From: Shigella phage SF1-1
Sequence record: PQ571307
Direction: 5' to 3' (one strand)
DNA length: 64,000 bases
The translations under genes and the position numbers were made by a program. Shown here in pieces: positions 29,210 to 32,354 of this stretch. The notes beneath the pieces are model-generated. The model was not told the origin of the DNA. It ran no database searches and saw only the letters and a list, made by a program, of their open reading frames with translations. Numbering within the stretch: position 1 is the stretch's first letter; every line of letters begins with the position of its first letter.

Positions 29210-29773
29210 ATGATTTATTATATTACTCCCTATCTGACAGGAAATATCGGCAAGGCTATTAATGAAGCCATTGCCGTTCTTCCAGATGATAGTTGGGTGT
29301 GTTTAAGAGATACCGATACAATGTTCCTCCTACCTGATCAACCATCTATGCTTGAAGAGCTTATTATGTCAAACCCACCTTTTGATGTAATAGGTGCAAC
29401 TTGTAATAGGCTGGGTAGTGGTTATCAGCTTTTCTCTAACCAAATTAATGATGACCCAGACATTCTAAATCACATGGAATATGCTAAAATTGCACGGGAA
29501 TATCATAAAACAAACGTTGAAGAAGTTCCTTTTGGAACACCTTTAGCTGGTTTCTTTTTGCTTTTTAGGAAATCACTGTGGAATGAAATTCCTTTCGAAG
29601 AAAAATCTATCCAATTTGACTTAATTTTCTCTCGCACTTTACACGAAAAAGGAAAAAGGTTAGGATTGATGCGGGGAATGTATCTGTTCCACATTTACAG
29701 ATTAGGTCAAACAAATCCTCAACGGTCTATACATCATTTATTACACTGTCACGATCACAGTAAAACTATTTAG
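29210..29773 (+). CDS. glycosyltransferase-like protein (GT-A fold candidate)
   Basis: 187 aa, GGGGAG RBS; DxD-like CLRDTDTMF; weak family call. Confidence 0.4.
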   Translation: MIYYITPYLTGNIGKAINEAIAVLPDDSWVCLRDTDTMFLLPDQPSMLEELIMSNPPFDVIGATCNRLGSGYQLFSNQINDDPDILNHMEYAKIAREYHKTNVEEVPFGTPLAGFFLLFRKSLWNEIPFEEKSIQFDLIFSRTLHEKGKRLGLMRGMYLFHIYRLGQTNPQRSIHHLLHCHDHSKTI

Positions 29774-29781
29774 GAGAGATA

Positions 29782-30465
29782 ATGGAAAATATTAAAATCG
29801 GAGTGGGTGTTATCACTGTAGGTGTCCGTCCACTTAAAGACTACCTTGTAACAGATCCACGTGCAGATTTTCGAGTATTCAACGATCCAGATCGTAAAGG
29901 TGTAGCTTACGCCAGGAATGAACTTATGCACCAGTTTTATGAAGAAGGTTATGATTATTGGTTTATTTTTGACGATGATTGCTACCCAGTCATGGAAGGA
30001 TGGGAAACATATTTTGTAGATCAGGCTGTTTCTGGAGGATGGGATTTCTTTGGTATGCCGGAGTATTTCAAAGATAAAGTTGTTGGAAGCAAAGGAGAAG
30101 TTATTTTCTGGGAACTTGCAATGTGTCAATTTGCAATGTATTCTCGTGCCGTTGTTGAGAAGATGGGTTATTTCCGTCCTTACACTCACGGTTATGGTTT
30201 TGAAGATGCTGAATGGGGACACCGTTTGCAAGCTGCTGGTTTGAATCATGGTATTCAGGCAACACCTTGTCCACTTCGTATCATGGCTTATATCCACCCA
30301 GACGATGTTTTTGGAAACAATCCTATGCCTTTTGCTAATCTGACAAAAGAAGAGAAAGAAGCTGCTATTGGTATTAACTGGGAAGAATACAAAGCATCTT
30401 TAGAGGATATTAAAAATGGGAAAATCCGAATTTCCTATGAGGAGGCACTAGCACATGTCAAATAA
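29782..30465 (+). CDS. family 2-type glycosyltransferase (GT-A fold)
   Basis: VAYARNELM, DxD motif WFIFDDDCYPV, GFEDAEWGHR pattern typical of GT2-like enzymes. Confidence 0.55.
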   Translation: MENIKIGVGVITVGVRPLKDYLVTDPRADFRVFNDPDRKGVAYARNELMHQFYEEGYDYWFIFDDDCYPVMEGWETYFVDQAVSGGWDFFGMPEYFKDKVVGSKGEVIFWELAMCQFAMYSRAVVEKMGYFRPYTHGYGFEDAEWGHRLQAAGLNHGIQATPCPLRIMAYIHPDDVFGNNPMPFANLTKEEKEAAIGINWEEYKASLEDIKNGKIRISYEEALAHVK

Positions 30466-31402
30466 AAAATGGTCTAAACTAAAAATTGATGCAAAACCTC
30501 ACAGCGGTTGTGACTATCATCGTATTGTTATACCATTTAACAACAATAATATTCAACCTAAGAAAGATGTTGTTGTGTTTAACCGTATCCACTCTAAAGG
30601 TGCAGAATACGTTTTATCTTTGAAACGCCAAGGTGTTAAGATTGTTGTAGACTTAGATGATTTTTACCAACTTAATCCAGAGCATTATTTGGCAAGTTTA
30701 TACGAGTCAAACACTCATGCTATTGTGGCTATGGTTAAGCTTGCTGATGTGGTTATTGTGACTACGGAATACTTGGCATATAAGATCCGTCACTTAAATA
30801 GGAATGTTGTTGTGATCCGAAATGCACTTCCTTTTGATAGTGGACAATTCACTTTGTCAAATGATCGTTCATCCGGTACCCCTGTTGTATGGGCTGGCGG
30901 TGCTAGTCACGAACCCGATTTACGACTAGTCTCTAATACTTTCGATGATGAACTTCTTACTATTGCGGGATATGAAGCATCGCAGAGCATCACAGGACAA
31001 GAGTGGATTAAGATTCGCAGAAATTTACCAAATGCCAAATATAAAGCTGCTGTAAAAGATTTAGATAATTACATGAGTGTTTACGAAAGTCATGCTATTG
31101 CTATAGCTCCTTTGGTAGATAATGATTTTAATAATTGCAAAAGTAATCTCAAAATCCTGGAAGCTGGGGCAAAAGGTATTCCGATTGTTTGTTCTAAGGT
31201 GTTACCTTATTTTAACCCTGTAGATGCTCGTGCTGTTGCTTACGCAGAGAATAAAGCAGAATGGCATTACGAAATTGTTAAGCTTCTTCGCAATCCAAAC
31301 TATCGGGAAGATCGTGGCTTGTTCTTGGCTGAACATGTTCGAACACATTATAATCTGGCAGATGCAAATGAGTTGCGACGCCAGGTTATTGAAAGTTTGT
31401 AG
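30455..31402 (+). CDS. glycosyltransferase-like protein, paralog 1 (function tentative)
   Basis: 315 aa; shares CDYHRIVIPF, VVWAGGASHEPDL, SNLKILEAGAKGIPIVCS with the next gene. Confidence 0.5.
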   Translation: MSNKKWSKLKIDAKPHSGCDYHRIVIPFNNNNIQPKKDVVVFNRIHSKGAEYVLSLKRQGVKIVVDLDDFYQLNPEHYLASLYESNTHAIVAMVKLADVVIVTTEYLAYKIRHLNRNVVVIRNALPFDSGQFTLSNDRSSGTPVVWAGGASHEPDLRLVSNTFDDELLTIAGYEASQSITGQEWIKIRRNLPNAKYKAAVKDLDNYMSVYESHAIAIAPLVDNDFNNCKSNLKILEAGAKGIPIVCSKVLPYFNPVDARAVAYAENKAEWHYEIVKLLRNPNYREDRGLFLAEHVRTHYNLADANELRRQVIESL

Positions 31403-31409
31403 GTGAAGT

Positions 31410-32354
31410 ATGGGACAAATAATTCTTGACAATCGTAACGGAATCAATTATAGTGTCTGCGATTTCCATAGGGTAGTGCTGCCTTACTCAAGGCAGTTCT
31501 CTTCACAACCTAAACACAACGTTTTCGTTTTTAACGGAGTGCCAACAAAAGGTAAAGAGGGCTTTTTAGCCCTTAAAAACCTAGGCTTTAAAATGGTTAT
31601 GGATTTGGATGACTCTTTAGTTATTCCAAAAGGACACATGTTAGAAGGTATTTTTGAATCAGGTATTCGTGAACATTTAAAATGGTTTTTAGAGCACAGT
31701 GATCTTGTTACAACTACGACACCTGCCTTGCAAGTTGAACTTTCACAATACAATGATAATGTGCACATAATCCCTAATGGACTTCCTTACGATGAAGGTC
31801 AATTTGTGTTGACCCGTGATCGCTACTCCAAAACTCCATTAGTCTGGGCTGGAAGTGAAACACATAAACAAGATTTGGCTATCTTGCCCGATTTTGGTAA
31901 AGATCTTACAATATGTGGTTTTCGTAGGGATTCTGAAGTTTTAAGTAGTCGTGAATGGTCTGTAATCAGGGAAAATGTAGCACCAACTTGTGTTTATGAA
32001 GGTGTAAGACCATATGCCAACTACATGGAATCTTACGATGGTCATCAAATCAGTCTTGCGCCATTGATTGATAACGTGTTTAATAATGCAAAAAGCAATC
32101 TTAAAATTCTTGAGGCAGGTGCTAAGGGTTTACCTTTGATCTGTTCTCCTCGTGAGAATTATCATACACAAGAGTTTAAAGATCTGTTATTCTTTGCTGA
32201 AACACCTTCCGAGTGGAAAGATATTACGGAATACTTATTAAGTGCTCCCGATGTTTGCATGGAGAAAGGATTAGCATTAGCTAAGTATGTCAGGACTCAT
32301 TATCACATTGATGTGTTGAATGAGCGTCGTAGACTTTTATTTGAGGAGCTATAA
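31410..32354 (+). CDS. glycosyltransferase-like protein, paralog 2 (function tentative)
   Basis: 314 aa; CDFHRVVLPY, LVWAGSETHKQDL, SNLKILEAGAKGLPLICS paralogous to upstream gene. Confidence 0.5.
   Translation: MGQIILDNRNGINYSVCDFHRVVLPYSRQFSSQPKHNVFVFNGVPTKGKEGFLALKNLGFKMVMDLDDSLVIPKGHMLEGIFESGIREHLKWFLEHSDLVTTTTPALQVELSQYNDNVHIIPNGLPYDEGQFVLTRDRYSKTPLVWAGSETHKQDLAILPDFGKDLTICGFRRDSEVLSSREWSVIRENVAPTCVYEGVRPYANYMESYDGHQISLAPLIDNVFNNAKSNLKILEAGAKGLPLICSPRENYHTQEFKDLLFFAETPSEWKDITEYLLSAPDVCMEKGLALAKYVRTHYHIDVLNERRRLLFEEL

Follow-up and report, generated by a model that had tools for sequence, protein, structure and literature searches.

Known phage glycosyltransferase systems

In mycobacteriophage Che8, capsid and tail tube are glycosylated by glycosyltransferases (GTs) of the phage itself, and together with Corndog and Myrna this phage provides the precedent for O-glycosylation of capsid and tail tube (Freeman 2023, as cited in PMC12363180, PMC11256854 and PMC13445384). 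Four tandem GT genes of Shigella phage SF1-1 (sequence record PQ571307) are compared here with this and other described systems. They occupy positions 29,210 to 32,354 of the 64,000-nucleotide stretch that was analysed, which is called the window in the following, and the four open reading frames (ORFs) are referred to as ORF1 to ORF4 or, together, as the cassette. The combination of ORF1, ORF2 and a GT-B gene is a mobile cassette that is common to many unrelated phages, and its products tentatively appear to act on virion proteins, whereas a role in the glycosylation of phage DNA is disfavoured.

As far as they are described in the citing papers, the mycobacteriophage operons (Che8 gp108-110, Corndog gp38, Myrna) resemble the cassette in that they encode several soluble GTs, including GT-A enzymes of the DxD type, in that some versions have accessory genes for nucleotide sugars or methyltransferases, and in the structural connection: relatives of the cassette are located within the structural module or beside it, and an O-linked modification of the capsid is proposed. 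The enzymes are not orthologous, however. ORF2 matches Che8 gp108 in the GT-A core only (E 0.002, 22% identity), gp109 and gp110 gave no match, tblastn returned more than 330 mycobacteriophage GTs (E ~1e-8), and the similarity of ORF2 to GTs of cluster F mycobacteriophages is weak. Also unlike the operons, the putative SF1-1 system has a GT4-like GT-B enzyme in a central role, Gram-negative hosts and a position on the replication side.

The alpha- and beta-glucosyltransferases of phage T4 (AGT and BGT, families GT72 and GT63) and the beta-glucosyl-hydroxymethylcytosine alpha-glucosyltransferase of T2/T6 are likewise soluble phage GTs that are encoded among genes of DNA metabolism. AGT and BGT have a GT-B fold, but there is no sequence similarity to the cassette, both enzymes are absent from the top 50 PDB matches of ORF3, the genome encodes no hydroxymethylase or dCTPase, and the DNA of relatives of SF1-1 is cut by HincII and is sensitive to restriction in vivo. 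The TET-associated glycosyltransferases (TAGT, PF20691) of phages are small and of GT-A type, with a DxD motif, and ORF2 matches this family weakly (E 1e-3), with 19.5 bits against a gathering score of 27.5 and over 37 residues only (residues 32-68); a gene for a TET/JBP dioxygenase is neither annotated in the genome nor found near the cassette. With the retaining GT4-type GT-B enzymes BshA, MshA, PglA, TarM, SdgB and PimB, ORF3 shares the two-Rossmann fold (Foldseek E 5e-10 to 1e-8, TM-score ~0.6) and a C-terminal donor-binding region that matches Pfam Glyco_trans_1_2 and Glyco_trans_1_4, but the identity is only 10-17%, ORF3 is compact with its ~315 residues, and a cysteine stands in place of the first glutamate in the canonical E-x7-E motif (C228...E236, as read from the sequence). 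A197 of the archaeal virus STIV (PDB 2C0N) finally is a small GT-A enzyme with a DxD motif and the best solved match of ORF2 (E 3e-6), at a TM-score of only 0.40-0.47 and 17% identity. The capsid protein of STIV is glycosylated.

Four tandem glycosyltransferase genes

The region of 3.1 kb that comprises the cassette is 97-98.5% identical to 64 records of Phapecoctavirus phages, and the window derives from a phage of this genus. The genus Phapecoctavirus contains the phAPEC8-like E. coli myoviruses and belongs to the subfamily Stephanstirmvirinae. The window aligns with positions ~18,500-82,557 of Escherichia phage tuntematon, where the counterparts of the four ORFs are gp113-gp116, all four of which are annotated as glycosyltransferases in RefSeq. 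An initial annotation that was made from the sequence of the window had described four tandem genes of this type, and this description holds, as the co-directional ORFs were found at exactly the same coordinates and all of them match PHROG families annotated as 'glycosyltransferase' (E 2e-112 for ORF1, 1e-78 for ORF2, 7e-149 for ORF3 and 2e-145 for ORF4). The glycosyltransferase assignment is valid for all four genes. Pfam by itself is weak, with only ORF4 just reaching a gathering score, none of the four could be assigned to an NCBIfam family, and sequence and profile searches of PDB chains with ORF1, ORF2 and ORF3 returned nothing informative. All four proteins lack membrane-spanning segments. 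The genes follow each other with spacings of 8, -11 and 7 nt, each of them is preceded by a Shine-Dalgarno-like sequence, and there is no terminator-like site on the plus strand between 27000 and ~33500; a promoter scan was uninformative (31 sigma-70-like sites, 22.4 +/- 4.7 expected).

ORF1 has no Pfam match of its own and is 65% identical to gp166 of phage phi92. Its DxD motif, initially regarded as the weaker one of two, is part of an R-D-x-D-T motif that is near-invariant in the ORF1 family, and D34-x-D36 is found in at least 90% of 32 homologs. The family is large (972 representative clusters in an exhaustive profile search), and ~40% of its top matches are fusions in which the ORF1-like domain is preceded by a TOD1/MUCI70-like domain, a GT2 domain, a methyltransferase together with TOD1, or an ORF2-like domain. 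The last type is represented by the distant fusion P0265, whose ORF1-like region passes the threshold of Pfam Glycos_transf_2 (GT2) with 26.5 bits. From these sequence features, ORF1 is predicted to be a small, soluble and divergent GT-A-like glycosyltransferase. The idea that it might be a truncated ORF2 was rejected, as an hhalign comparison of the two families shows no relationship (probability 0.2).

For ORF2, a GT2-type DxD motif had been noticed initially, and this could be substantiated by the residues F63-D64-D65-D66, which are invariant in 20 homologs, and by the predicted GT-A fold of the AlphaFold model, which has a predicted local distance difference test score (pLDDT) of 89. A second motif, Y138-G139-x-E141-D142, is invariant as well. 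The best PDB match to STIV A197 is followed by collagen GalT, B4GALNT1 and TarP, and the significant matches in PDB and BFVD are mostly GT-A enzymes, plus related nucleotidyltransferases. Among predicted viral structures, Foldseek found only unspecific enzymes of GT2- and GT25-like type, often unnamed, which gave no clue to the acceptor. The sequence-based matches are short: Pfam GT2 yields 13.3 bits at a cutoff of 23.3, around the DxD motif only, and phrog_842, the alpha-glucosyltransferase of T-even phages that acts on beta-glucosyl-hydroxymethylcytosine (HMC), matches with E 1e-5 over ~38 residues around the DxD motif only. Prophage proteins of 485 residues with an ORF2-like N-terminus reach 29 bits on Pfam GT2. 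Pairs of an ORF2-like gene and a GT-B gene ('2B') are present in many phage loci, and ORF2 is the member of the cassette that is most often kept beside the GT-B gene.

The AlphaFold model of ORF3 (pLDDT 95.6) has a GT-B fold with two Rossmann domains, and Foldseek yielded 298 PDB matches at E <= 1e-3, the top ones being BshA, PglA, SPS, GlgM, MshA, TarM and SdgB. An invariant glutamate is present in the ...LEAGAKG... motif of this GT-B family. In Pfam, ORF3 stays below threshold (22.8 vs 27 bits for Glyco_trans_1_4, 20.4 vs 25 for Glyco_trans_1_2), and ORF4 obtains 25.2 bits for Glyco_trans_1_2 at a cutoff of 25.0. ORF3 and ORF4 are 41% identical (BLASTP, E 9e-78), on the basis of which ORF4 would have a GT-B fold as well. 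The initial annotation had also called the pair recently duplicated, of which the paralogy stands but not the recency: ORF3 has its own ortholog in phi92 (gp164, 72% identity) and so has ORF4 (gp163, 76% identity), and the duplication is therefore older than the split between Phapecoctavirus and Justusliebigvirus. In Klebsiella phage KP13-16, a single GT-B gene occupies the corresponding place, and the second GT-B gene is missing from the prophage cassettes. Judged from the sequences, the duplication of the GT-B gene is real but old.

A mobile cassette in the company of head and packaging genes

A word-indexed search found 209 homologs of the GT-B enzyme, including proteins from bacterial genomes at 41-52% identity that are mostly encoded in prophages, and the genomic context was surveyed in 99 further loci from IMG/VR and GTDB. 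In a prophage of Serratia sp. M24T3, holin and endolysin genes are followed after an interval by ORF1-like (41%), ORF2-like (36%) and GT-B (52%) genes and then by the genes for HNH, TerS, TerL and capsid, and a prophage of Enterobacter huaxiensis shows the same order with an inserted gene for an NAD-dependent sugar epimerase/dehydratase. In a Pseudomonas silvicola prophage and in metagenome contigs, an ORF2-like gene and a GT-B gene precede TerS, TerL and portal genes. On the contigs L040 and L041, three cassette genes with overlapping stop and start codons are inserted between the genes for the major capsid protein (MCP) and the head-tail connector, on at least five contigs the order is TerL, portal, protease, MCP and then the GTs, and in Streptomyces phage Zuko a sugar epimerase gene and a GT-B-like gene lie directly before TerL and portal. 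Among the 99 loci, the recurrent neighbours of close homologs are TerL (of several types), TerS, portal, prohead protease, MCP, an HK97-gp10-like protein, tape measure and HNH. Homologs of at least 40% identity mostly occur in the gene orders '2-B', '1-2-B' or '2-B-1', in which B is the GT-B gene, and those of 30-35% identity are mostly alone or near a GT2 gene. The order '1-2-B-B' is confined to Stephanstirmvirinae-like contigs in the 99-locus survey. In this subfamily, the cassette is located between genes that match gp006 and gp008 of Salmonella phage PVP-SE1 (phi92 annotation notes), and the replication-side position is peculiar to the Stephanstirmvirinae and not a stable property of the cassette.

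The P. silvicola prophage (L004) encodes two genes upstream of the GT-B gene a 143-residue protein rich in Ser, Thr and Ala (8871-9302, plus strand). By eye it appears to contain an Ig-like repeat of the Big_2 type, and it may be a decoration protein or else a candidate for the acceptor.

Outside of phages, the GT-B gene has been found alone. In Burkholderia dolosa and on two Trinickia chromosomes, a gene for an intimin/invasin-type adhesin is followed by a gene for a protein of ~560 residues and then by a lone GT-B gene, and in the loci L006, L010, L097, L099 and L100 the corresponding order is an inverse autotransporter of 853-1128 residues, a protein of 555-571 residues and the GT-B homolog. 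Proteins of ~475 and ~245 residues are encoded on the opposite strand of the Burkholderia/Trinickia loci, and the flanking proteins are homologous between B. dolosa and T. symbiotica, the pair that was compared. The locus of these Burkholderiaceae may be an adhesin glycosylation locus, and the lone GT-B gene behind an adhesin gene hints at a protein as acceptor.

These gene neighbourhoods also bear on a function in the remodelling of the host envelope, in which the GTs would modify undecaprenyl-linked intermediates of enterobacterial common antigen (ECA), O-antigen or colanic acid, or of the lipopolysaccharide (LPS) core, at the cytoplasmic face of the inner membrane. The receptors of the phage itself would thereby be altered or blocked, resulting in superinfection exclusion or in a lack of adsorption to debris, and in serotype conversion in the case of prophages. 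A GT4-like GT-B together with a GT2-like GT-A enzyme is the standard toolkit for polysaccharide repeat units, PglA, TarM, TarP, WrtF and chondroitin polymerase are among the top structural matches, the phage encodes the synthesis of deoxythymidine diphosphate (dTDP)-rhamnose, and the Serratia and Enterobacter prophages have the cassette after the lysis genes, which is a typical moron position. ECA and the LPS outer core are thought to be receptors (PMC8594841). However, in L040 and L041 the cassette is embedded in a late head operon from which no expression is expected in a lysogen, the cassette is not accompanied by a flippase, a polymerase, an initiating phosphoglycosyltransferase or a GtrABC-like membrane component, the GTs themselves do not span the membrane, and the lone GT-B gene of the Burkholderiaceae is tied to adhesin genes and not to polysaccharide loci. 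Envelope remodelling appears unlikely.

The position beside replication genes and DNA glycosylation

The initial annotation had taken the sugar-transfer genes beside the replication genes as an indication that sugars are attached to DNA bases. The identity of the GTs and their position are correct, and the 92-residue ORF and the genes for primase-helicase, methyltransferase and polymerase are found downstream as described (Table 1), but the conclusion drawn from this on DNA is not supported. In such a system, the GTs would transfer sugars, possibly rhamnose, onto modified bases of the phage DNA and thereby protect it against restriction. Besides the fact that the cassette adjoins primase-helicase, methyltransferase and polymerase genes, this idea can be based on the sub-threshold TAGT match of ORF2 and its match to the PHROG of the T-even HMC alpha-glucosyltransferase, which cover ~38 residues each, and the late-operon slot in prophages would also fit a Mom-like modification before packaging. 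DNA glycosylation by means of the rml genes is a published speculation (Olsen et al. 2020, PMC7552041).

The pathway that would be required for it could not be detected, and two of the checks that had been suggested initially, a search for a hydroxymethylase and a structure comparison with the T4 glucosyltransferases, turned out negative. There is no homolog of the T4 dCMP hydroxymethylase gp42 or of the dCTPase gp56 (E > 0.1, tblastn against the window and 99.7% of the tuntematon genome), in tblastn searches of window and tuntematon genome T4 a-gt gave no match and b-gt a best E of 0.96, and no dCMP hydroxymethylase, dUMP hydroxymethylase or dCTPase is annotated in the RefSeq genome. The thymidylate synthase is of the ThyX type, and the other nucleotide genes code for a MazG-like pyrophosphohydrolase and the 5'-deoxynucleotidase NT5C. 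Generic enzymes of the GT4 and GT-A types were returned by the fold searches, and DNA glucosyltransferases were absent from the results. The neighbours of the cassette are TerD, a cell-wall hydrolase, small ORFs, primase-helicase, the N6A-type methyltransferase and PolA, and neither a TET/JBP nor a cytosine-C5 methyltransferase gene is among them.

In addition, the DNA of relatives behaves as expected for DNA that is accessible to restriction enzymes. Normal cutting of the virion DNA had been named initially as an outcome that would speak against base glycosylation, and for relatives this is largely what the literature reports. In a collection of APEC phages, DNA from all five phapecoctaviruses and all three justusliebigviruses was cleaved by HincII, which was without effect only on ESCO10, on ESCO47 (Dhakavirus) and on ESCO58 (Tequatrovirus), of which the last two are described as T-even phages (PMC10269720). 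The cassette was shown to be present in 7 of the 8 phages with cleavable DNA, the check having covered all but ESCO32. The phi92-like phages of the BASEL collection, which have the cassette at 71-76% amino-acid identity, are 'exceptionally susceptible' to type I-III restriction-modification despite their 'putative dTDP glycosylation machinery' (PMC8594841), and those with the cassette show sensitivity also to Druantia and to ARMADA, whose target is presumed to be unmodified DNA. In prophages as well as on viral contigs, the same ORF1, ORF2 and GT-B genes are found within the module for head and packaging, and the small temperate phages with a cassette have no base-modification genes nearby. 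As a hydroxymethyl-base pathway is absent, the folds are generic, the DNA of relatives is cut, and the position of the genes is mobile, there is no support for DNA glycosylation, which is disfavoured and very improbable. A sparse, motif-specific DNA modification is possible. The 264-residue protein that is encoded downstream is probably an N6-adenine DNA methyltransferase, judging from its sequence motif and family matches, and it is a more plausible DNA modifier in the replication module than the GTs.

Glycosyltransferases and the C-termini of capsid proteins

The capsid proteins that are encoded beside the cassette have Thr-rich tails at their C-terminus, and two unrelated capsid families were analysed in this respect, with 80 loci fetched for each and the presence of the cassette scored by hidden Markov models. 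At least 3.5 kb of downstream sequence were needed for a locus of family A, and at least 5.5 kb of upstream sequence for one of family B. In family A, the C-terminal residue is Thr in 4/4 MCPs with a cassette and Ser or Thr in 0/54 homologs without one, which mostly end with TP (36), AP (9) or GP (5). In family B, all 37 MCPs with an upstream ORF2-like GT2 gene have a C-terminal Ser, in 15 tail variants, and all 18 MCPs without this gene end with GG. The Serratia and Enterobacter prophages with their full 1-2-B cassettes belong to family B, and their MCPs end with PTT and TTT, respectively. The sequences thus give a suggestive picture in which GT presence tracks a C-terminal Ser or Thr of the capsid protein in two unrelated families, although the contrast amounts to ~2-3 phylogenetically independent comparisons, since the cassette-bearing groups are clades.

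In many enterobacterial prophages, the GT2 protein in question has 485 residues; its N-terminal domain is ORF2-like, and its C-terminal half (~230 residues) is uncharacterised. Its gene (examples are the loci L191-L237, e.g. L209 at 4284-5741 on the plus strand, and E. coli UMNK88, NC_017641.1, 3190387-3191844) lies between the endolysin gene and HNH-TerS-TerL, ~5 kb upstream of a protease-capsid fusion gene. The product of the latter has a hypervariable C-terminal tail rich in Ser, Thr and Gly, in which Ser is always the last residue.

A tentative pathway for the glycosylation of virion proteins

Glycosylation of virion proteins had been mentioned in the initial annotation as an alternative, and it is the reading that is best supported here. 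Its detailed form, a stepwise glycosylation that probably uses rhamnose from the rmlABCD genes of the phage, is held tentatively, with a chance that falls a little short of even. The four soluble cytoplasmic enzymes, two of GT-A type and two GT4-like GT-B enzymes, would act in sequence and generate a short oligosaccharide on an acceptor other than DNA, most probably on one or more structural proteins of the virion and before or during assembly. ORF2 would probably be the core enzyme or the initiating one, since it is most often retained together with a GT-B and since its fold recurs in the prophage variants with a single GT. The donor dTDP-L-rhamnose would probably be supplied by rmlB-A-C-D of the phage, independently of the serotype of the host, and the branch of Phapecoctavirus and Justusliebigvirus would have supplemented the cassette by the old GT-B duplication and by the addition of the dTDP-L-rhamnose pathway. 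The acceptor, the donor and the order of action are what we infer from the genes. E. coli has rml paralogs of its own. The phage rmlB-A-C-D genes are annotated ~70 kb away from the cassette, outside the window (Pfam E 6e-80 for RmlB, 1e-66 for RmlC and 3e-73 for RmlD), and the pathway is common to phi92-like phages (PMC7552041).

Several points weigh against virion glycosylation or against its details. The phapecoctavirus ESCO37 (OM386659) has kept the four-GT cassette with 97.5% identity and is devoid of rmlA and rmlB (PMC10269720), which is why a strict coupling of rml genes and cassette was rejected. In the literature that was searched, there is no report of glycosylated virion proteins in Stephanstirmvirinae. 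In SF1-1 itself, the cassette is part of a string of genes on the replication side, outside the structural module, and the resemblance to the Che8 enzymes does not go beyond fold and motif. The slot upstream of terminase genes is a common one for morons and DNA methyltransferases, and this context is compatible with a DNA modification at packaging. The capsid comparison also cannot be extended to SF1-1: the MCP tail of Stephanstirmvirinae is ...VVKLTTA, that of cassette-less relatives is ...VVKATLKGGE, ...VVKSTGKFTA, ...VIKMTSV or ...VVKLTGTFA, and a Thr after ELVVK is also present in relatives without a cassette. As this tail comparison is uninformative, the MCP is not claimed as the acceptor in SF1-1. 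A literature search for glycosylated virions of phages of Gram-negative bacteria or for rhamnosylated phage DNA found nothing relevant, and a 'proteomics' paper on O177 phages is a comparative in-silico study without virion mass spectrometry.

If generalized, virion O-glycosylation would be a widespread and hitherto uncharacterised system in phages that infect Gram-negative bacteria, with the C-terminal Ser or Thr of the major capsid protein as acceptor in small HK97-type phages, and with four GTs and a dTDP-rhamnose pathway of the phage in the Stephanstirmvirinae, which would build a glycan coat that contains rhamnose. In this extended form the idea is doubtful, albeit possible.

Neighbouring genes and other acceptors

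The genes around the cassette are listed in Table 1. A complete Ter-type cluster is encoded upstream, which we take to resemble the 'Ter-dependent stress response / nucleoside-like metabolite' neighbourhoods of Anantharaman, Iyer and Aravind. It gives rise to a further alternative, namely that the GTs modify another cytoplasmic acceptor, be it a host protein in the course of takeover or a small molecule such as a nucleoside-like product of the Ter/phosphoribosyltransferase cluster. The cluster is part of the same gene string with no terminator before the GTs, the cassette of SF1-1 is on the early/middle side of the genome, and small-molecule transferases are among the top structures for ORF3 (BshA, MshA, tetrahydrobiopterin glucosyltransferase, SenB and TreT). 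In all sampled prophages and contigs, however, the cassette occurs without Ter genes and beside head genes, and for a host protein as target there is no specific link. An acceptor of this kind is regarded as quite unlikely.

Table 1. Glycosyltransferase cassette of Shigella phage SF1-1 and surrounding genes (positions in the window)
Feature	Position	Strand	Length	Remarks
Ter-type cluster, complete	18649-27887	+		directly upstream of the GT cassette
ComF-like phosphoribosyltransferase	18649-19476	+		
Macro domain	19424-19963	+		
TerC	20279-21253	+		
SprT-like	22879-23469	+		
TelA	23466-24578	+		
vWA-TerF-like	25980-26774	+		
TerD	27285-27887	+		
SleB-type cell-wall hydrolase	27987-28508	+		after TerD
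ORF1	29210-29773	+	187 aa	GT-A-like (predicted), phrog_14179, ortholog of phi92 gp166
ORF2	29782-30465	+	227 aa	DxD enzyme of predicted GT-A fold, phrog_2456, ortholog of phi92 gp165
ORF3	30455-31402	+	315 aa	predicted GT-B fold, GT4-like, phrog_7162, ortholog of phi92 gp164
ORF4	31410-32354	+	314 aa	GT-B paralog of ORF3, phrog_7162, ortholog of phi92 gp163
ORF of 92 aa			92 aa	after ORF4, before primase-helicase
Primase-helicase	32645-34423			
Putative N6-adenine-type methyltransferase	34956-35750	+	264 aa	NPPF motif, phrog_799 match, weak Pfam match to Eco57I methylase
Family A DNA polymerase (PolA)	35750-38347			

Downstream of the DNA polymerase gene, an ORF of 192 residues (38377-38955, plus strand) lies in a stretch (~38335-38953) that does not align with tuntematon, and probably represents a mobile insertion, for instance a homing endonuclease. 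Further stretches that do not align with tuntematon are 13434-14422, 49740-50558 and 54064-55887. Outside the window, tuntematon gp161 (L002, 43603-44082, minus strand) is annotated as 'DNA methyltransferase' in RefSeq, yet its match is to PF14550, the family of XkdF-type prohead serine proteases (E 1e-11), and going by this match the RefSeq annotation is probably wrong.

Significance for phapecoctaviruses and phi92-like phages

The annotation of GT folds has been known since the phi92 genome (2012) and from RefSeq, and the idea of DNA glycosylation had been published and in effect contradicted. What is new is the mobile cassette of ORF1, ORF2 and GT-B, its association with head and packaging genes, its adhesin-linked relatives in bacteria, and the correlation with a C-terminal Ser or Thr of capsid proteins, which in prophages offers a concrete and cheap experimental handle. 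ESCO37 is a natural variant with which the dependence of the GTs on dTDP-sugar synthesis by the phage can be addressed. Sugar genes near replication genes do not equal DNA glycosylation, and a resistance to restriction should not be assumed for these phages.

The coliphages of broad host range that are isolated most often include phapecoctaviruses and phi92-like phages, and these are used in therapy cocktails. If virion glycosylation were confirmed, it would be a non-orthologous variant of the mycobacteriophage systems and would extend phage virion glycosylation to Gram-negative hosts. For coliphages that are candidates for therapy, phAPEC8 and phi92 among them, a glycan coat could have effects on immune recognition, stability or adsorption, and if the virions carry a glycan that is built by the phage, this would bear on antibody recognition, pharmacokinetics and receptor interactions, as has been shown for mycobacteriophages.

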